Below are positions 4,476-51,785 of a DNA stretch of 64,000 bases, piece by piece. Source of the DNA: a virus. Its lineage: Duplodnaviria; Caudoviricetes. How positions within the stretch are numbered: the first letter of the stretch is position 1; each line of letters opens with the position of its first letter. Location: IMG/VR virus record IMGVR_UViG_3300037504_000149, one strand, 5' to 3'. The notes below the pieces were generated by a model. That model ran no database searches and was not told the origin of the DNA. It saw nothing but the letters and a program-made list of their open reading frames with translations. The position numbers were made by a program, and so were the translations under genes.

Positions 4476-5399
4476 CTGCCTCCCCGCCCGCCGGGAATGA
4501 TCCTGGCGGGTAGGGATGCTATTACCACACAACCGCCCCCGTGTGGGCAAAGGAGGGTGCGATGAGCAATGATTTGAAGAGTATGATGCTTGACGTTGCC
4601 GCCGATGAATATGGATTTTGGGGTTATACTGATGAGCTGGAGCCCGGTGAGCTGGACGAACTGAAAAGCGCTGCTGAGGAGCTTGACCTGCGTGTGGTAA
4701 TTGAGCACGGCATCCCCGGTGTTTACATTCGACCGCTTGACACTGGTCTTGGAATTAAGGAGGGTGCGATGAGAACCGGAGAAATCTATACACAGCTACA
4801 CAAACTAGAGGTTAAGATCGACAGCATCAAAGGTATGATGCACAATGAATACCAGCGACGGCTTGTCGAGACGACTGAACCGGAATTTTCTAAAGAAATG
4901 AGATCTCTATGGAACACTAAACGCTACTTAGAAATGGCGAGTTCAGCATTACGCGCCGCACAGCATAACTTTACTACCTTGGTATAGCACACTTGTTAGT
5001 AGGGAAAAGGAGGCACAGATGGGTACTTTAGTGCTTTTCGTGTTGCCAGCAAGTCTGTTGGGTTTACTATTGTGTTGGTCTGCGCCTCCCATCATTGCCT
5101 TTCCTGCTGCTATACTTTTTGTGGTAGGTGTATTCACATCAATCATCTACCTATTACTTGATCCTTTTGGGGAGTTTCGTAAATGAGACACCACTTCAAA
5201 CAACCCCAGGATAAGGATGGTAAACCTATCCACATTCAGCAGAGAGTTGCAGTAGACTCTACTCCTGAAGACGTTTGGAAAGGTGGTTTCTCAGGCACGG
5301 TCATTAGAATTATCAGTACCTTTAAGGTTACGGTATCTGATTTGAAGGGTCATGCCTTTGATGTACCTGCACACAAGACAAAAGTTTTGGAAGGTTAAA

Positions 5400-6140
5400 A
5401 TGAATGATGCTCTAGGTGATCGTATGAAGAAGTATGAGAATACTACAAGGTATTACCTACCTCCCCGTACACCTATCATTATTAGAGTAGATGGTAAAGC
5501 CTTTCACACTTATACTAAAAATTGTATAGAACCATTCAGTAATGTTCTAATAAACATAATGAATGAAGTTGGGTTACATCTTTGTGAGAATATCCAGGGT
5601 GCTGAACTAGCATATATTCAAAGTGATGAAATTTCTATATTAGTTCATTACTATAAAAAGTATACTTCATCTGCATGGTTCGATAACAACTTGCAGAAGC
5701 TGGTAAGTGTTTCAGCTAGTCTAGCTACAGAAGCATTCATTAACAGTTTGATGCGGCGTCCCATCGCTTGGCAGTCACAGTTTGGTGGTAAAACACCTAA
5801 CTTTGATAGCCGAGCTTTTTGTATACCAGTAGCGGACGTATGCAATTACTTTATCTGGAGGCAGAAAGATTGGGAACGTAATAGTTTGCAACTACTAGCA
5901 AGAAGTTTATACTCTCATAACGAATTACACGCTAAGAAGCGTGATGAATTGCACGATATGTGTATAGCTAAAGGTAATAACTGGAACCAGCTACCAGGGT
6001 ATTATAAACGAGGTAGATGTGTCAAGTTACTTTGTAATACTGATACTCCTGTTACTAAACGAGAGTGGGTTGTAGAAACTCCTCCCATATTTACTAAAGA
6101 TAGAGATTACGTTGAAGAACATCTGTTTGTTGAACAATGA
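5400..6140 (+). CDS. thg1: tRNA(His) guanylyltransferase Thg1-like protein
   Basis: LGDRMKKYE, IIRVDGKAFHTYT, YIQSDEIS, FDSRAF, YFIWRQKD motifs typical of Thg1/TLP. Confidence 0.92.
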   Translation: MNDALGDRMKKYENTTRYYLPPRTPIIIRVDGKAFHTYTKNCIEPFSNVLINIMNEVGLHLCENIQGAELAYIQSDEISILVHYYKKYTSSAWFDNNLQKLVSVSASLATEAFINSLMRRPIAWQSQFGGKTPNFDSRAFCIPVADVCNYFIWRQKDWERNSLQLLARSLYSHNELHAKKRDELHDMCIAKGNNWNQLPGYYKRGRCVKLLCNTDTPVTKREWVVETPPIFTKDRDYVEEHLFVEQ

Positions 6141-11637: not shown

Positions 11638-12876
11638 ATGGATCTAGTTGAAAAAATTAGGCTGTTCCCTACCGAGGAACAAAACAAGCAACTCCGAGAG
11701 TTGGCTGCGTTCTGTCGTGACGCGGCAAACTACATCTCGGAGTTTATCTATACACATCGTTTGCGCTCCAAGGGTGTAGGGACGCTCTACAAACCGGATT
11801 GGGAAACGCGAGCTGCAAAAGATGATCCAGACGCCGTTTCACTTTATAAGGTATTGTGCAGTGCTTTCGATTTTAGTGGCAAGAAGTCTCTAGCCACCGC
11901 GATTATTCAAAGGGTAAAATCATCCTATAAGTCCACCAACGCACGAAACATCACACAAGGGGATGCCTTTTATCGGGCAGGTAAGGCGAAGTATCGTCAA
12001 TTGAAGAAAGATGGAATAAAAGGGGAAACACTTAAGGCTGCTGCTAAGCTTACTCAAGAAGAAAAGAACGAGATAGCTGAACGGTATGGCATGACAAAGC
12101 CGCTCAGCTTCAATCCCTTTATTCCTACCCTAAAACAGAATACTAAATGGAAGGAAAACACAGTCAGTTTCTTCGGTATCTCAAGTATACCTTTTGCGTC
12201 TCGACTGGAAAACATAGAGTCTCGTGACGCGATTGTTAAGCTCAACAAAAACAACAAGTGGCTGCTACACCTTCCCGTAGAGACCTCCGAAGAGGAAGTT
12301 TACGAACCTGCTGGTTGGTTGGGAGTAGATGTCGGACTGGCAAACCTGGCTGTCACCTCTGAGGGCACGGTCTATTATGGCGGTGAGAACCGTCGCCGTG
12401 GTGAAACACGGTTCAAGCAACGTCAGCGGATGCAGAAGAAGGGTACTAAATCCGCGAAGCGTAGACTGAAAGCTCTTTCCGAGAAAGAAACAAGGTGGCG
12501 AAAAAATCTCTGCCACGAGATCAGCACCGCTATCGTCCGACGTGCGAAAGAGCTTCGCTATGGTGTAGCGGTAGAAACGCTGAAAAACATTCGGCGAAAC
12601 GTGAGACAATCGAGGAAGCTGAATCGTCAGCTTCACGGTAGTTTTCCTTTTGGTATGCTTCTTTCCATGCTAGAATATAAAGCAGAGAAAGAGGGTGTAC
12701 CATTCCAGAAAGTGGATCCTAAAAATACCTCCAGGACGTGTCCAAAGTGTGAATATGTAGCAGAGAAAAACAGAATTAGCCGTACACACTTTAAATGTGT
12801 GGAATGCGGCTACAAAAACTACGCAGACCATGTGGCGGCAACTAACATTTCTCGGATAGCAGAAACCGGGATATAA
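11638..12876 (+). CDS. CRISPR-associated TnpB-family / compact type V (Cas12f/Cas12n-sized) RNA-guided nuclease
   Basis: N-terminal KIRLFPTEEQ (OrfB-like); RuvC-I GVDVG, RuvC-II AVETL, Zn finger CPKC...CVEC, RuvC-III ADHVAATNI; directly upstream of a CRISPR array. Confidence 0.9.
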   Translation: MDLVEKIRLFPTEEQNKQLRELAAFCRDAANYISEFIYTHRLRSKGVGTLYKPDWETRAAKDDPDAVSLYKVLCSAFDFSGKKSLATAIIQRVKSSYKSTNARNITQGDAFYRAGKAKYRQLKKDGIKGETLKAAAKLTQEEKNEIAERYGMTKPLSFNPFIPTLKQNTKWKENTVSFFGISSIPFASRLENIESRDAIVKLNKNNKWLLHLPVETSEEEVYEPAGWLGVDVGLANLAVTSEGTVYYGGENRRRGETRFKQRQRMQKKGTKSAKRRLKALSEKETRWRKNLCHEISTAIVRRAKELRYGVAVETLKNIRRNVRQSRKLNRQLHGSFPFGMLLSMLEYKAEKEGVPFQKVDPKNTSRTCPKCEYVAEKNRISRTHFKCVECGYKNYADHVAATNISRIAETGI

Positions 12877-12883
12877 TGTTGGT

Positions 12884-13020
12884 GGCGTCGGGGCGTAGGG
12901 AGACGCCCATACAGCGGAGACGAGATCCGAACTGATGGCGTAGCACAGACGATAGGATCACTTGAGTCTACTGCTGAGCACAGCACTACTTTTCGAGAGC
13001 CTTCTGGTGACATAGAAGGC
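12884..13020 (+). ncRNA. Putative tracrRNA (omegaRNA-like scaffold)
   Basis: Hairpin GGGCGT-AGGGAG-ACGCCC whose loop is complementary to the repeat end CTCCC; long stem 12912-12976; anti-repeat GCACAGCAC 12978-12986; closing hairpin GCCTTCT/AGAAGGC. Confidence 0.7.
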
Positions 13021-13025
13021 CGGGA

Positions 13026-13166
13026 GGTTCTCGAAAAGGTATATTGTTGATAGTAGGATAGTTACGGCAAGGGTGCGTTTTCTAGTACATTTCTCGGGGC
13101 CTGAAAGTGGGGGTTCTCGAAAAGGTGAAAATAAACCTAGTAATATCAACAAGTTAAAAGACTGGG
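13026..13166 (+). promoter_or_regulatory. CRISPR leader with IHF-like site and direct repeats
   Basis: GGTTCTCGAAAAGGT at 13026 and 13112; TATCAACAAGTTA (13144-13156) matches the IHF consensus WATCAANNNNTTR. Confidence 0.65.
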
Positions 13167-13983
13167 GTTTTAACGACTTCTGCGGTGTGCTTGTGCATCT
13201 CCCTGGTAGCTTCTTGGGGTTTTTGTATCGTTTCGGAAGTTTTAACGACTTCTGCGGTGTGCTTGTGCATCTCCCTACAAAATACATCATCGGTTGGCCT
13301 AAGTTGTCCTTCTGTTTTAACGACTTCTGCGGTGTGCTTGTGCATCTCCCTATATAGAAATCATGAACTCAGGAGGTTCACTATGAGTTTTAACGACTTC
13401 TGCGGTGTGCTTGTGCATCTCCCATACTGCATCGACCAGACACGCCTACCCTATCATTAGTTTTAACGACTTCTGCGGTGTGCTTGTGCATCTCCCTATT
13501 GGTAGTGAGACAGTGGACAAGGCCATAAATGGCCGTTTTAACGACTTCTGCGGTGTGCTTGTGCATCTCCCATACCATTGAGCCTGATCTGGTAGTGCTA
13601 TGCCTCATTGTTTTAACGACTTCTGCGGTGTGCTTGTGCATCTCCCAGCATAGTAAACCTCCTGAGTTCATGATTTCTATATAGTTTTAACGACTTCTGC
13701 GGTGTGTTCGTGCATCTCCCCTGCTGCTACATCGGTCCTAACACAGATCAAAGGGAGTTTTAACGACTTCTGCGGTGTGTTCGTGCATCTCCCCTGCTGC
13801 TACATCGGTCCTAACACAGATCAAAGGGAGTTTTAACGACTTCTGCGGTGTGTTCGTGCATCTTCCTATAGTAGAGAGTAGAAAGTTACATACATGGTCT
13901 CGGGTTTTAACGACTTCTGTGGTGTGTTTGTGCATCTCCCACCCTTCGCCATACACCTTCCGCAAAGTGTTTGTGTATCTCCC
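13167..13983 (+). CRISPR. CRISPR array: 11 full 37-bp repeats GTTTTAACGACTTCTGCGGTGTGCTTGTGCATCTCCC plus a terminal half repeat; 35-38-bp spacers
   Basis: Repeats start at 13167, 13239, 13314, 13387, 13460, 13535, 13610, 13684, 13757, 13830, 13904; partial repeat 13967-13983; degeneration at the right end; spacers 8 and 9 identical; last spacer shortened to 26 bp. Confidence 0.98.
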
Positions 13984-14011
13984 AGCCCTCTCACCCATCC
14001 CAAGGAACGAT

Positions 14012-14905
14012 ATGTCTCTTCGACGATTAGGTATCTACCATAGAGTAGATAATGATGGTTTTGCTTGTGCTGCTATTCTGCGGCATAGGTTTCCCTCCAT
14101 CGATCTTTTTGGGATGAATTATGGGGATGAAGAACCCCATTTCATTGAAGATTATGATCAGGTTTACATAGCTGATTTTTCTCTCCCCCCCAAGAGGATG
14201 CAGCATCTAAATTCATTAACTGAGATGCATTGGATCGATCATCATCAAACAGCTATAAATGATTGCAAAGATCTAGATTTACTAGGTTTACGTAAAATAG
14301 GAGAAGGTGCTTGTTCTCTCCTTTGGCAGTATTTATATCCTCACTACCCTGTACCTGAAGCTATACAGCTCATCTCAGACTATGATGTGTGGAATTTATC
14401 TGATACGGTTATACACTTTCAGTATGGTTTACGTCTGATGGGGGATATACGCTTAGCTGATGAAATTCCTGAGTTCGAAGGAACAGCTACTAAGGAGTGG
14501 CTAGATTACCAAAACCTCTCGTACTTTTGGGAAAACCTTCTCAGAGGCTCTCAGAGCCTCATAGACAGCTTAAAAGACGAAGGCAGTGTCGTATACCGTT
14601 ATGTACGCTCACAGCTTTCTAAAGCCATTAAACGGGGCGTAGCGATGTCCTTTCACGGACACGACGCCCTTTTTGTTATGACACCTGACAACCCCTCCCT
14701 TATGGCAGAACTGTGGAAAGATTATGATGTTTGCATCAAAGCTTTCTATGACCTTTCTGCTTCAAAGTGGAGGCACACCTTATTCTCCCACCCCGGCGGT
14801 CCTAATGTAGGTAAGCTAGCTAAGAAATACGGTGGGGGCGGGCACGAGCATTGTGCTGGGTTTATGTGGGATCACTTGGCGCTACATAAGAAACTAGCTG
14901 AGTAA
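14012..14905 (+). CDS. DHH/DHHA1 family phosphoesterase
   Basis: YHRVDNDGF, IADFS, WIDHH, GGGGHEHCAGF motifs; real start after the array. Confidence 0.9.
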   Translation: MSLRRLGIYHRVDNDGFACAAILRHRFPSIDLFGMNYGDEEPHFIEDYDQVYIADFSLPPKRMQHLNSLTEMHWIDHHQTAINDCKDLDLLGLRKIGEGACSLLWQYLYPHYPVPEAIQLISDYDVWNLSDTVIHFQYGLRLMGDIRLADEIPEFEGTATKEWLDYQNLSYFWENLLRGSQSLIDSLKDEGSVVYRYVRSQLSKAIKRGVAMSFHGHDALFVMTPDNPSLMAELWKDYDVCIKAFYDLSASKWRHTLFSHPGGPNVGKLAKKYGGGGHEHCAGFMWDHLALHKKLAE

Positions 14906-25033: not shown

Positions 25034-25800
25034 GTAAGATAATACTTTGGGAAACAATGAAAGATACAGTCGGTATCTGTAATAGAGGGTTAAAGGAAGT
25101 TATCAATAAACTAGGGGGAGAAGGGATAACTCTACCTCAAGCTCGTAAAGCTTGTAAGGAGGGGGTCTTTCCTTTATGGTATGCTGTTAGAGCAGCTACA
25201 GCACTGGAATTACCTAACTGGAAATTAGCTTTAGGGAAGGTAGTAGCACACGTTCATCCTAAAGCTAAAAAATACTATAAAGATGAAGCTGTCTATTTCT
25301 ATAACCAGAAGATTCTTGAGGAGGGTAGATTAGAAGATATAGATAGTGCTGCTGCTGGGGCTGCTGTTGATGCTGCTGCTACTTGGGCTGCTTGGGCTGC
25401 TACTTGGGCTACTAGGGCTGCTGGGTGGGCTGCTGCTCCCTGCTGCTCTGCTGCTAGGGCTGCTAATGCTGCTGAGGCTGCTGCTGGTGGTGTTGATGAA
25501 CTCATTGACATATACTTTGATACACTGGAGGAAAAAATGAAGGAAATAACTTTTACTAAGGAAGAGTTTTTAGCAGATGCTCGCAAGGCTGCTGAGAAAT
25601 ATGATGCGCTGCCAGAATGGAAGAAAGCTCATTTAACTTTTTCACAACCTTATTATACAAAAGAGAAAAAGATGATTGTTAAAGAAGGTTCTATACTAGC
25701 TAGAGCATTAAAAAATATTAGCTCTCGATATAAAAACGCTCCAGAATGGGTAAAGAATAATCTATCTGTTTCACGAAAGATCAAAAAAGAGGAGAAATGA
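25030..25800 (+). CDS. Ala/Trp-variable paralog family member 7, read through into a downstream small gene
   Basis: Framework ends LEEK, then an in-frame MKEITF... extension from ATG 25538. Confidence 0.7.
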   Translation: MSKIILWETMKDTVGICNRGLKEVINKLGGEGITLPQARKACKEGVFPLWYAVRAATALELPNWKLALGKVVAHVHPKAKKYYKDEAVYFYNQKILEEGRLEDIDSAAAGAAVDAAATWAAWAATWATRAAGWAAAPCCSAARAANAAEAAAGGVDELIDIYFDTLEEKMKEITFTKEEFLADARKAAEKYDALPEWKKAHLTFSQPYYTKEKKMIVKEGSILARALKNISSRYKNAPEWVKNNLSVSRKIKKEEK

Positions 25801-26954
25801 TGGAAATTAAACCTTGTCCCTTCAGTCATATAAGCACAGACAATGAGGCACCAGTTGCCGAGAATGAAGAATATTTAAAGAACCAACTGATTACATATAT
25901 TGGTAATAAAAGGTCATTGTTATACTTGATTAACAAAGCGATAATATCAATTAAAAAAAGAATCGGTAAAGATGCTTTACGTACATTTGATGTATTTAGC
26001 GGCTCCGGTATTGTTTCGAGACTGTTTAAATCTCATTCTTCATATATCATAGCTAATGATATTGAGGATTATGCGCATACTATTAGCAAATGTTATTTAA
26101 CTAATCGAAGTGAAGTTAACTATCATGTTATTAATAATATATTTAATGATATTAATAATAAAGTAATAAATAACAATTATTCCGAAGGGTTCATAGAGGA
26201 ATTGTATTCGCCAAATGATGATCAGAATATAACAATTGATGATAGGGTGTTCTATACGAAAAATAACGCTAGAAGAATTGATAATTATCGTCGTTTAATT
26301 GATACATATCCAAAAAAGTATAAAAAATTATTACTAGGCCCATTATTAAGTGAGGCTTCAATTCACGCAAATACAGCAGGTGTATTTAAGGGGTTCTATA
26401 AAAATGTAAAAACAAAAATTGGTCAATATGGTGGCTCTAATAGTGATGCATTAACTCGCATATTGGGTGATATAATACTTACAGAACCAATATTGAGTAA
26501 CTATGAATGTGATTATGCTGTATATCAAGAGGATGCAAATGCACTTGTTCGCAATATAGATGAGGTTGATATTGCTTATATAGACCCTCCATACAATCAA
26601 CATCCATATGGTTCTAACTATTTTATGTTAAATCTTATCAATAATTATAAGCGCCCAGGTGAAATCAGTAAGGTTTCAGGTATACCTAAAAATTGGAAGA
26701 GATCGGGCTATAACGTGCGAAAAAAATCAAAATTGTTGGTTTCTGATCTTGTTAATAACATAAAAGCAAAATATTTGTTAATATCATACAATGACGAAGG
26801 TTTTATTAGTCCTGATGATATGATGATAATACTAAATGATATTGGCAAAGTAGAGGTTGTAGAAAAAAAATATAACGCATTCAGAGGAAGCAGAAGTTTT
26901 AAAAATAGATCTATTCATGTTACCGAGCAATTATTTATAGTTGAAAGGAGATAG
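25797..26954 (+). CDS. N6-adenine DNA methyltransferase (D12/Dam-like class)
   Basis: TYIGNKRSL, FDVFSGSGIVS, YIDPPY; very AT-rich. Confidence 0.9.
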   Translation: MMEIKPCPFSHISTDNEAPVAENEEYLKNQLITYIGNKRSLLYLINKAIISIKKRIGKDALRTFDVFSGSGIVSRLFKSHSSYIIANDIEDYAHTISKCYLTNRSEVNYHVINNIFNDINNKVINNNYSEGFIEELYSPNDDQNITIDDRVFYTKNNARRIDNYRRLIDTYPKKYKKLLLGPLLSEASIHANTAGVFKGFYKNVKTKIGQYGGSNSDALTRILGDIILTEPILSNYECDYAVYQEDANALVRNIDEVDIAYIDPPYNQHPYGSNYFMLNLINNYKRPGEISKVSGIPKNWKRSGYNVRKKSKLLVSDLVNNIKAKYLLISYNDEGFISPDDMMIILNDIGKVEVVEKKYNAFRGSRSFKNRSIHVTEQLFIVERR

Positions 26955-28666: not shown

Positions 28667-30154
28667 ATGCCCAAACTAAAACTCCAGACTTACCTTGCCA
28701 AAGCTGTCGTCGAGAAGGACGTAGAGACGGCGTATAAGGCAGAGCTAGCAGATACCCTACCCCACGCTACCCTAACCTCGCCTTACGGCTCTGACGGGCT
28801 TATACAGGACCAGGAGCTACGCATTCTATTTGAGGCAAAGTATGATTTGCAACTTAAGGTGCGGAAAGAAAGCATGGGAGTTGTAGCACAGGCCCTCTTC
28901 TACTTGAAGAAATTCGAGGAGGACGGAGAGGTCTTGCCGCAAGTTATATTGGTAGGGGATAAGAACGAGTGTTTCTTAATCCCTACTGATAAGCTGGTTA
29001 AATATCTGGACACAGATATTGATTGGGATGTTGCGCCAAGCAAGCCGCACCCGGTACTGCTACTAAAACTTATCGAAGACGTAGAAATCTCGCCATATGT
29101 CTATGATATTACAAAAGACCTAGATTTTGAAGAAATCATAGATCATGCCACAAACCTGGCCGAAGGCCACGAGTATAAGGTTAGAGCTTCAGTGGACAAC
29201 ATTGAAACCTTGTTCCAGCGGTGGGAAGAGGAGATTTTCAACGATAAGAAGTTGAAGTCAGGGGATAAGGTGGCTATATTCTTACAGGCGTTATTCTATC
29301 CTGAAGAGGTATATCTACATCCGAAGAAAAAGAACCTGCTGGTCTTAGATAAGACGGGGGAGAGCGTCAAAGTAAAGGCGGATGAATACCGTGCGTTCTT
29401 CTCCCACTTCGCTCAAGGCTATATGCCAACAGAAATTGATAAAATCTACTCTAAGAAAGATATACTGATTGAGGAAACAGAGAGGCGGTTCACAGGGCAG
29501 TTCTATACGCCAGCTTGGATCAACGATCTTTCCCACGAGATGATTAGTGAAGTGGTGGGGGAGAACTGGCGAGATGAGTATTTGGTGATTGACCCCGCTT
29601 GCGGAACCGCAAACTTGACAAGGGATTACCAATTTAGTAATCTGGTCTTGAGTACTCTGGAGTCCAGGGATATTGACATTATCCGAGAGCAACGCTATAA
29701 TGATGGAGCGGTGGTTGCTCAGTGGGATTTTTTGAATGACGAGATCCCGATGGAGATTAAGGCTAAGCTGGAGGGTGCGGAGAGAGTGGTGTGGTATTTG
29801 AATCCGCCCTTCAGTGATAGTGGTTCTGGCGGTCCTAGCAAAGAGAATAAGACCGGTGTGTCGGCTCACAAGGTTAAAGATTGGATGAAGGATGAAAAGC
29901 TAGGTCGAGCTAGCAATCAGCTTTATGCTCAGTTCTTCTACCGCATTACTAAGATCATGGAAGAGTATGGGTTATCTGGTTTTATCTGTAGCTACTCCGT
30001 ACCAGTCTTTATGACGGGCGGTAGCTTTAAGAAGTTTAGAGAATGGTGGGATAAGCGTTGGGAGTTCAGAGACGGCGCATTATTCCAAGCTAAAGAGTTT
30101 TCTACTGGTATTGGAGACTGGGGCGTTAGTATGACTTGTTGGGAGAGGAGATAA
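28667..30154 (+). CDS. Fused restriction-modification enzyme, N-terminal part (PD-(D/E)XK nuclease plus N6-adenine MTase)
   Basis: SDG...LFEAK nuclease-like motif; GQFYTP, IDPACGTAN, NPPF. Confidence 0.8.
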   Translation: MPKLKLQTYLAKAVVEKDVETAYKAELADTLPHATLTSPYGSDGLIQDQELRILFEAKYDLQLKVRKESMGVVAQALFYLKKFEEDGEVLPQVILVGDKNECFLIPTDKLVKYLDTDIDWDVAPSKPHPVLLLKLIEDVEISPYVYDITKDLDFEEIIDHATNLAEGHEYKVRASVDNIETLFQRWEEEIFNDKKLKSGDKVAIFLQALFYPEEVYLHPKKKNLLVLDKTGESVKVKADEYRAFFSHFAQGYMPTEIDKIYSKKDILIEETERRFTGQFYTPAWINDLSHEMISEVVGENWRDEYLVIDPACGTANLTRDYQFSNLVLSTLESRDIDIIREQRYNDGAVVAQWDFLNDEIPMEIKAKLEGAERVVWYLNPPFSDSGSGGPSKENKTGVSAHKVKDWMKDEKLGRASNQLYAQFFYRITKIMEEYGLSGFICSYSVPVFMTGGSFKKFREWWDKRWEFRDGALFQAKEFSTGIGDWGVSMTCWERR

Positions 30155-50647: not shown

Positions 50648-51785
50648 TTAAAGGAGTAAGTGTATGGGCACCATTAGATACAAAAATATCAAGAACAAAC
50701 TTCATACTTCCTTATTTAATAATAATTACAAATATGTTGACACAAAACGTATAGCAGCATCTAATACACAATATAACATTGGCGATATATTTTCAGGGGC
50801 TGGTGGATTAACGCTAGGTTTTCAAATGGCAGGTTATAATCCAATATTTAGTGCAGAATTAGACAAAGATGCATCTGCAACATATAAAAATAATTTTCCA
50901 AATACTTATCATTATAATGGGTATATACAAAATATAAGTAAAAATATGGCATTAAATGCAATTGGTGAAAATAAAATACACATATTATGTGCAGGTTTTC
51001 CGTGTCAGGGCTTTTCTATTGCAGGTGCAAGGAATGCTACAGATAAAAGAAATCAGTTATTTAAGGAGTTTATAAGATTTACAAACTATTTTAAACCATG
51101 GTTTGTTGTTGGTGAAAATGTTCCGGGAATTATAACGCTAAATAAGGGCAAATTTTATGACCTTATTATTAACAGTTTTAAAGAAATAGGTTACCCAAAT
51201 ATGTCTGTTCTTATTTTGGAGTCTGCCGATTATGGTGTTCCACAATATAGACCAAGAGCGATATTTATTGCTAATCGTTTTGGATTGGTAAATCCGTATC
51301 CTAAAGAAATATATAATACTAATGAACATATCAGCATAGAGAACGCTATTGATGATTTAAAATATGTTCCTAGAAATCCAGATATAAATCATGAATGGAC
51401 TCGTCACTCTAAAACAATGGAAGAACGTATTTCTTATGTAAAAGCTGGAGGCTCTCTTTATGACAGCTATACAGATGCATGGAAAAGACAATATAAAGGT
51501 AAACCTTCGATGACAATAAAAGAAAACCACGGTGGTGTCCATATTCATTATGAACTAAATAGAACCATTTCTGCAAGAGAAATGGCTCGTTTACAAAGCT
51601 TCCCTGACTCGTTTATTTTCAAGGGCAGGATGAAACGTGTAATGTTTCAAGTTGGTAACGCAGTACCACCTCTCCTAGCTTATCACATTGGACTTGCGCT
51701 TAAGCCGTCGTTGGTCGAAATTGAACAATTAAAGTTAGGAACTTAACATCCTATTGAACTGCCCTCCGCTACCATTAAAGGAGTA
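50632..51785. mobile_element. Single-gene islet bounded by 27-bp direct repeats of the tRNA-Ile 3' end
   Basis: CTGCCCTCCGCTACCATTAAAGGAGTA at 50632-50658 and 51759-51785; AT-rich interior. Confidence 0.75.
50664..51746 (+). CDS. dcm: C5-cytosine DNA methyltransferase
   Basis: FSGAGG, GFPCQGFS, ENVPG, QYRPR, RLQSFPD, GNAVPP. Confidence 0.93.
   Translation: MGTIRYKNIKNKLHTSLFNNNYKYVDTKRIAASNTQYNIGDIFSGAGGLTLGFQMAGYNPIFSAELDKDASATYKNNFPNTYHYNGYIQNISKNMALNAIGENKIHILCAGFPCQGFSIAGARNATDKRNQLFKEFIRFTNYFKPWFVVGENVPGIITLNKGKFYDLIINSFKEIGYPNMSVLILESADYGVPQYRPRAIFIANRFGLVNPYPKEIYNTNEHISIENAIDDLKYVPRNPDINHEWTRHSKTMEERISYVKAGGSLYDSYTDAWKRQYKGKPSMTIKENHGGVHIHYELNRTISAREMARLQSFPDSFIFKGRMKRVMFQVGNAVPPLLAYHIGLALKPSLVEIEQLKLGT

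Follow-up and report, generated by a model that had tools for sequence, protein, structure and literature searches.

In the type I-E system of Escherichia coli, a single protospacer can give rise to spacers that are complementary and have their boundaries in common (Shmakov et al. 2014, PMC4027179), and for a protospacer that lacks the consensus acquisition motif, integration in either orientation is about equally likely (PMC4027179). Either orientation is also accepted by the type III-B RT-Cas1 system, with no PAM required at acquisition (Silas et al. 2017, PMC5576922). Miniature type V systems encoded by phages have been described as well, namely the Cas12 hacker Cas12p (bioRxiv 10.1101/2025.01.20.633832) and Cas12r of Thermus phages (bioRxiv 10.64898/2026.04.20.719267), whose spacers are thought to hit rival mobile elements. 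Phage-borne arrays that lack adaptation genes pose the question of who writes the spacers, and by which rules; the phage array described here bears on this question.

In interference-driven acquisition, as in type I priming or where Cas9-cut ends serve as the source of spacers, new spacers cluster where an older spacer already matches. The known clusters of this kind spread over hundreds to thousands of base pairs, and follow PAMs. To our knowledge, exact end-to-end tiling of spacers has not been described for natural CRISPR adaptation.

The array is found in a 64,000-nucleotide stretch of DNA, hereafter the window, that forms part of a phage-like contig of 229,864 bp. The genes of the window are small and co-directional; they include several DNA methylases, a ligase and a Thg1-like gene, and such gene content is typical of a large phage. 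Three genes are of DNA methyltransferase type, a D12 N6-adenine type (25797-26954), a weak N6_Mtase match (28667-30154) and a C5-cytosine type (50664-51746); the gene for the Thg1-like tRNA-His guanylyltransferase is at 5352-6140. Cas1 was not found among 30 of the larger ORFs of this 64-kb portion of the ~230-kb contig.

The effector gene ends 290 nt upstream of the array (Table 1). Its product scores above the cut-off of the NCBIfam guided_TnpB model (180.4 bits against 100) and below that of the Cas12f2 model NF049972 (121.6 bits against 450), and the nearest solved structures are those of Cas12f and TnpB. In an alignment with 9 relatives, the RuvC triad (D231, E313, D397) and the zinc-finger cysteines (C368/C371/C387/C390) are invariant, and from these residues a working nuclease is the default expectation. 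The protein thus has the D-E-D triad, the C-terminal zinc finger and the size (400-700 aa) of a type V-F/Cas12f effector, and falls short of the curated Cas12f model. Plain TnpBs, with 43-46% identity over half the length of the effector, are closer to it than Cas12f. A single transposon-end guide with TnpA or IS ends nearby, as in an IS200/IS605 TnpB element, is not what is seen here, and none of the neighbouring ORFs tested has a tnpA-type Pfam match. At 412 aa, the effector appears to sit between the transposon nucleases and Cas12.

Close relatives of the effector are rare: a collection of 5.8 billion clustered proteins contains only four that are at least 65% identical to it, and IMG/VR a single relative, of 30% identity. 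One of the close relatives (65% amino acid identity) is encoded on L002, a syntenic 24.5-kb NCBI contig with an array of related repeats and wholly different spacers, none of which is in common with the window array; arrays at this locus therefore turn over. A second relative, L003, has an effector that is 82% identical, and its sequence breaks off in the first repeat. The non-coding stretch between the effector gene and the array is better conserved in these relatives than is the effector protein. It has no Rfam match at E < 0.7, and a long anti-repeat is unsupported, the energy of the repeat duplex being no better than that of shuffled repeats. Taken together with the known layout of TnpB and Cas12 loci, these features point to transcription of the + strand, with the guide lying 3' of the repeat end.

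Table 1. Features of the effector-array locus, in window coordinates
Feature	Position	Strand	Description
TnpB/Cas12f-like effector (P0001), 412 aa	11638..12876	+	Pfam OrfB_IS605 and Cas12f1-like TNB
Conserved non-coding stretch (candidate scaffold/tracr-type RNA and leader)	12877..13166	+	82% mean column identity with L003 and L002
CRISPR array	13167..13983	+	11 x 37-nt repeats, 10 distinct spacers, terminal 3' half-repeat
Spacer 1	13204..13238	+	middle piece of the 110-bp target stretch; joints 13609>13204 and 13238>13647
Spacer 2	13276..13313	+	second non-array site in the same sample; matching part 13280-13313
Spacer 3	13351..13386	+	36 nt; sense-strand copy of 5'UTR, SD and ATG; variant C, ATG then A
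Spacer 6	13572..13609	+	first piece of the 110-bp target stretch; spacer 1 directly after
Spacer 7	13647..13683	+	37 nt; antisense copy of the spacer-3 segment; variant T, ATG then CT; third target piece
Terminal 3' half-repeat	13967..13983	+	direct reading and parsing

As parsed by direct reading, the array is composed of 11 direct repeats of 37 nt (starting at 13167, 13239, 13314, 13387, 13460, 13535, 13610, 13684, 13757, 13830 and 13904) and spacers of 35-38 nt. Repeats of constant length, unique spacers of similar length, an adjacent effector gene, matches of spacers to foreign DNA and the turnover of spacers are all present, as expected of a CRISPR array. Repeats 1-7 are identical over 259 nt and repeats 8-11 are degenerate, which places the leader on the left side of the array. 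Repeat 8 with spacer 8 is the same as repeat 9 with spacer 9, an exact 73-nt tandem duplication (13684-13829) that shows a repeat-mediated rearrangement within the array.

At the far end of the array (13941-14014), 26 nt separate repeat 11 from the half-repeat, beyond which the sequence leads into the ribosome-binding site of a further gene that starts with the ATG at 14012. This gene, which encodes ~300 amino acids without a Pfam match, is conserved directly after the array in both phages (14012-14905 in the window, 12363-13265 in L002), and is a possible accessory gene of the locus. The L002 array has three half-repeat remnants (12127-12299). The trailing remnants in both arrays retain the 3' part of the repeat only, and neither L002 nor L003 departs from the window in the final 11 nt of the repeat; the 3' part seems to be the functional handle. 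One L002 spacer is just 23 nt in length (L002 11695-11717), with a variant repeat after it, which is compatible with a functional guide length of ~20 nt.

Within the window array, spacers 3 and 7 form a complementary pair. When spacer 7 is reverse-complemented and aligned with spacer 3, 34 of 36 positions agree: 28 identical nucleotides come first, then one C/T change and six identical nucleotides that include the ATG, after which spacer 3 has A and spacer 7 has CT. One boundary is the same in both and the other agrees to within 1 nt, so that the pair has the common boundaries and opposite orientations by which flipped spacers are recognised (PMC4027179). The sequence-only reading had placed reverse-complementary spacers over a Shine-Dalgarno sequence and start codon at 13351-13683, and this was exact, with AGGAGG-6 nt-ATG present in spacer 3 and in the corresponding segment of spacer 7. 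A 22-nt core of the pair is found at these two sites only in the window, on opposite strands, where shuffled sequence predicts none (100 shuffles). The repeats that flank both spacers are direct, and the inversion is confined to the spacers.

A separate observation concerns spacer 8 of the L002 array (L002 12053-12089), the reverse complement of which begins with the same 10 nt as spacer 10 of the window (13867-13876), at the same spacer boundary and in the opposite orientation. Here, for a second time, a single boundary motif was captured both ways.

The differences between spacers 3 and 7, one internal and one at an end, are set against the unchanged repeats 1-7 and the unchanged duplicated unit, and favour two source variants over mutation after copying. 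The possibility that one spacer is a flipped copy of the other made within the array, by disintegration and reintegration by an integrase or by capture of array DNA, and subsequently mutated, is therefore considered improbable. It would account for the one exactly common boundary, and the identity of units 8 and 9 is an example of internal rearrangement. It would, however, need about three changes in 36 nt where there are none in 259 nt of repeats or in the 73-nt duplicated unit, and the spacer-7 variant is found outside of the array with flanks of its own.

The DNA outside of the array comes from Logan contigs of one run (X1) of a tidal-flat metagenome, which contains 85% of the sequence words of the locus. 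Contig A reads from at least 255 letters unlike the window into spacer 6 and then directly into spacer 1 (13204 onward). Contig B starts with the last 30 nt of spacer 1, continues directly into spacer 7 and ends in 244 unlike letters. No letters lie between the joined pieces in either contig, and in the depth book-keeping (bins 13178-13341 and 13506-13710) contigs A and B give zero cover to any repeat. A repeat between the pieces would have aligned beside spacer 6 or spacer 7; as none did, the spacers directly abut. Paths through identical repeats were considered as a source of the joints, and were ruled out by the zero repeat cover and by the lack of intervening letters. Spacers 6, 1 and 7 are thus one uninterrupted 110-bp stretch, on one strand, of non-array DNA, a contiguity for which the evidence is two short Logan contigs from a single run, whose joint sides measure only 30 and 34 letters. 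A third contig matches the greater part of spacer 2, with at least 255 unlike letters on each side; two mismatches fall within the first four spacer positions, and both open frames cross the match.

The target contigs have depths of ~33-37 (~33 for the spacer 2 contig), as opposed to ~17-29 for contigs identical to the window, or about twice the depth of the phage. A separate co-resident replicon carries the 110-bp stretch, along with the spacer 2 site elsewhere. The run also contains a sibling strain of the locus, ~5% divergent and present at a depth of ~43-48 against 17-29 (window 12850-12986); its conserved non-coding RNA region differs by five substitutions and one insertion. The replicon that carries the 110-bp stretch may be this sibling strain.

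An assembly artefact has to be weighed for spacer 3 itself: a de Bruijn graph tangle of array and protospacer could have made a false spacer 3. The target does have words in common with spacer 7 on the opposite strand, and the region from 13342 to 13505 (spacers 3, 4 and part of 5) has no contig in the run, so that the run speaks neither for nor against spacer 3. Spacer 3, however, has a variant base and direct-repeat junctions of its own that could be obtained neither from the target nor from spacer 7, and the shared stretch is only 28 nt in length. Such an artefact is very improbable. Of the two variants, the one in spacer 3 (C; ATG then A) did not turn up as a protospacer.

The strand of the 110-bp stretch that corresponds to spacer 3 has the organisation of a gene start. 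A TG-n-TATAAT-type box lies in the flank, and one base further on begins the spacer-3-type sequence with AGGAGG-6 nt-ATG. From this ATG, an ORF of 14 codons extends across spacer 1, and the stop codon of this ORF overlaps the start of a second ORF (ATGA) that continues through spacer 6 into the flank. The combination of promoter box, Shine-Dalgarno sequence, ATG and ORFs marks the site as a real translation start near a promoter. The claim that the spacers cover a translation start thus survives a check that had been named for it, namely whether the protospacer lies away from a gene start. Also upheld is the claim that one site was taken twice, in opposite orientations and from two sequence variants, the spacer-7 variant being present as non-array DNA in the metagenome that bears the phage. 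Of the two suggested sources, two alleles or a repeated signal ahead of different genes, the second does not follow from the mere 1-2 nt that are available past the ATG. The importance of the site as a regulatory target is a conjecture of that reading.

The contiguity of spacers 6, 1 and 7 in the target, absent from the earlier reading, changes how the pair is viewed. At least four of the 10 distinct spacers trace back to these 110 bp, in that spacers 6, 1 and 7 exactly abut one another and spacer 3 is the last of these pieces, inverted and taken from a variant, and the spacer 3/7 pair belongs to an acquisition hot spot and is not an isolated double capture. The order of the pieces is 6, 1, 7 in the target, as opposed to 1 ... 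6, 7 in the array, which implies that spacers 6 and 7 are the older ones and that spacer 1, the newest, later filled the 35 nt between them exactly. Such later, exact filling is outside the prediction of a simple model, and the exact register of spacers 6, 1 and 7 is left without explanation by the known acquisition of flipped pairs.

Five 5' protospacer flanks can be compared (GTTA, CATT, GGAA, ATTA and AATA). GGAA belongs to spacer 7 and CATT to spacer 1, and TTA is found at spacers 2 and 6 only. All five flanks have A or T at -1 and -2, the only feature common to them, and three end in TA. A strict PAM is not evident from the five flanks, which is the condition under which integration proceeds both ways in E. 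coli (PMC4027179); a weak PAM may be present on both sides of the site.

The same flanks bear on an account in which acquisition was directed by a PAM and correctly oriented both times, an acceptable PAM being present on each strand 36-37 bp apart, with re-picking of the site after interference in a manner similar to priming. Clustering of new protospacers around an older one is the mark of primed or interference-driven adaptation, and is what is seen here, with four spacers in 110 bp, as expected if cleavage feeds acquisition. The paired A/T bases of all five flanks and an effector that, judged by its conserved residues, looks catalytically competent would also fit. However, a PAM that allows GGAA and CATT as well as TTA would have to be very loose, and the exact abutment of three pieces, together with an exact common boundary, is unexpected from independent PAM choice. 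We know of no documented priming in TnpB-like type V systems. This account is rather unlikely.

Searches for protospacers were extended beyond the tidal-flat sample. For all of the spacers, no protospacer was found in the window with up to 9 mismatches, nor in the fragments of the relatives L002, L003 and L042. IMG/VR contains neither the 22-nt core nor a 24-nt segment taken from spacer 2, and a match there to repeat words (L001) proved to be a chance match within a coding region. GenBank phages and PLSDB plasmids have no match to the whole array, and the L002 array, compared with phages, gave a single chance match of E = 0.8. The 22-nt core is also absent from 185,579 species genomes. Among JGI metagenomes there is one exact 22-nt match (L004, 2397-2433), at the point where a Legionellales-like bacterium has the Shine-Dalgarno sequence and ATG of a DsbD_TM/redoxin gene. 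This site was rejected as a target, as only 28 of 36 positions match, both guide-proximal ends are mismatched, and 13 orthologous loci lack a similar 5'UTR; the match is probably a coincidence. A 6-bp stem partner that lies 5' of the match in L004, and could mask the Shine-Dalgarno sequence, lacks conservation in the orthologues.

The reading we prefer, and to which we give an even chance, is that spacers 3 and 7 are separate captures, in two orientations, of variants of one site within a 110-bp hot spot cut in fixed register, in an array that is filled in trans. The captured fragment of 36-37 bp would begin directly downstream of the promoter -10 box, take in the Shine-Dalgarno sequence and end at the second codon of the short ORF. 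A Cas1-Cas2-type integrase, supplied in trans, would fill the array, ruling off fragments from a recurrent DNA end or footprint, and in the absence of a strong PAM would not enforce their orientation. Spacers 6, 1 and 7 would then be abutting pieces of the hot spot, and spacer 3 the third piece reversed. With transcription from left to right, each crRNA would consist of the conserved 3' end of the repeat and a guide of ~20 nt, by which the putatively RuvC-competent TnpB-like protein would cut target DNA. Several points weigh against this reading: the contiguity comes from two short contigs, the spacer-3 variant did not turn up as a protospacer, the pieces are in a different order in target and array, a weak PAM may flank the site on both sides, and the search for cas1, cas2 and cas4 covered 64 kb of the ~230 kb.

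As to the register, it is our conjecture that a recurrent DNA end at the promoter-side boundary, from which adaptation complexes are aligned, explains it. A fuller version of this idea is phased capture, in which a recurrent end of DNA or of a transcript marks the promoter-proximal boundary, and the complexes line up next to one another from there, with protection of consecutive footprints of 35-38 nt. Independent events over time would then result in exactly abutting spacers, with either orientation possible for the same unit, and in an array that concentrates on a single gene of a host or rival, from its promoter to its start codon. In this full form the idea is rather unlikely.

In the naked pre-crRNA, spacer 3 is predicted to pair with spacer 7 over 29+6 bp (z = -5.35), and the ~35-bp duplex proposed from sequence alone stands to this extent. 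In vivo, the duplex is hypothetical. The mature guides of type V nucleases such as Cas12f and TnpB are ~20 nt in length. At this length, crRNA3 would correspond to the promoter-side half of the site and crRNA7 to the start-codon half, on opposite strands and with an overlap of ~3 nt, such that the two would neither pair meaningfully once mature nor neutralise each other. The guide-proximal positions of crRNA7 include all of the positions that differ between the variants, and the 20-nt guide half of spacer 3 avoids them. A target with the spacer-3 variant would therefore escape crRNA7 and not crRNA3, which may be why both spacers were kept.

Within the array itself, crRNA3 meets the DNA of spacer 7 behind a repeat-derived flank ending in AC, and crRNA7 meets the DNA of spacer 3 with mismatches at positions 1, 2 and 10; for these reasons, self-cutting of the array is not expected. 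The earlier suggestion that the intra-array TAAAAC flank is probably not the PAM agrees with the real protospacer flanks, all five of which end in two A/T bases in contrast to AC.

Retention of the pair by selection is a further possibility, in which convergent guides provide escape-proof cutting or transcriptional silencing, or a pre-crRNA duplex has a role in processing or regulation. The position of the site between promoter and start codon is what this explanation would call for, as are the predicted 35-bp duplex and the placement of the guide half of spacer 3 away from the variable positions. A related pattern is that spacers 3, 5 (13497-13534) and 10 (13867-13903) begin with TAT and have an ATG among their final 10 nt (in spacers 3 and 5, at positions 33-35). 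Segments between promoter and start codon may thus be preferred, although the pattern was picked post hoc; its background is ~0.7% per site for such 37-mers. The intact RuvC triad, however, favours cutting over silencing, no complementary spacer pair is present in the L002 array, and selection would account for the retention of the pair but not for its origin. As an explanation of the pair, selection is unlikely.

The proposal of separate captures in a hot spot can be set beside the systems described at the outset. The resemblance to the flipped pairs of E. coli (PMC4027179) is that one protospacer yields complementary spacers with common boundaries. In E. coli, however, the pairs were found in a laboratory population after primed adaptation and with Cas1-Cas2 present, whereas here both members are in one natural phage array, represent two variants, and fall in an exactly tiled 110-bp hot spot. 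Should the tiling be no more than an oddity of two short contigs, the case reduces to an ordinary flipped spacer of the type already described. With the type III-B RT-Cas1 system (PMC5576922), the locus would, on the preferred reading, have in common the entry of spacers in either orientation with no PAM imposed; it differs in that no RT-Cas1 or type III genes were seen in the window, and in that the effector is a relative of the DNA-nuclease-type TnpB/Cas12f proteins. Clustering at an already matched site is likewise shared with interference-driven acquisition, from which the exact tiling sets the locus apart.

With respect to its components, the locus resembles those of Cas12p and Cas12r in the combination of a single small Cas12-type effector and an array, borne by a phage, without cas1 or cas2 nearby. 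The effector is smaller than Cas12p (412 aa as opposed to 500-700 aa) and scores as a TnpB by NCBIfam, and neither a GTN nor an ARG PAM is evident. Cas12f and TnpB are matched in the RuvC triad, the zinc finger, the size, the placement of the guide 3' of a conserved scaffold end and the conserved non-coding region after the gene. The locus departs from IS200/IS605 TnpB in having an array instead of a single transposon-end guide, and from Cas12f (type V-F) in that the effector is below the Cas12f2 model cut-off and closer to plain TnpBs.

Complementary spacer pairs as an outcome of adaptation are thus already described. What is new is that both members of a pair are fixed in one natural array, that of a phage, with a TnpB-sized effector and no adaptation genes in sight, and that the pair is part of a hot spot that is exactly tiled, the target being still found together with the phage. 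For an effector of the size of TnpB, the array is a concrete record on which acquisition that is in register and indifferent to orientation can be tested, and from the five real protospacer flanks the PAM of a very small candidate nuclease can be estimated for the first time.
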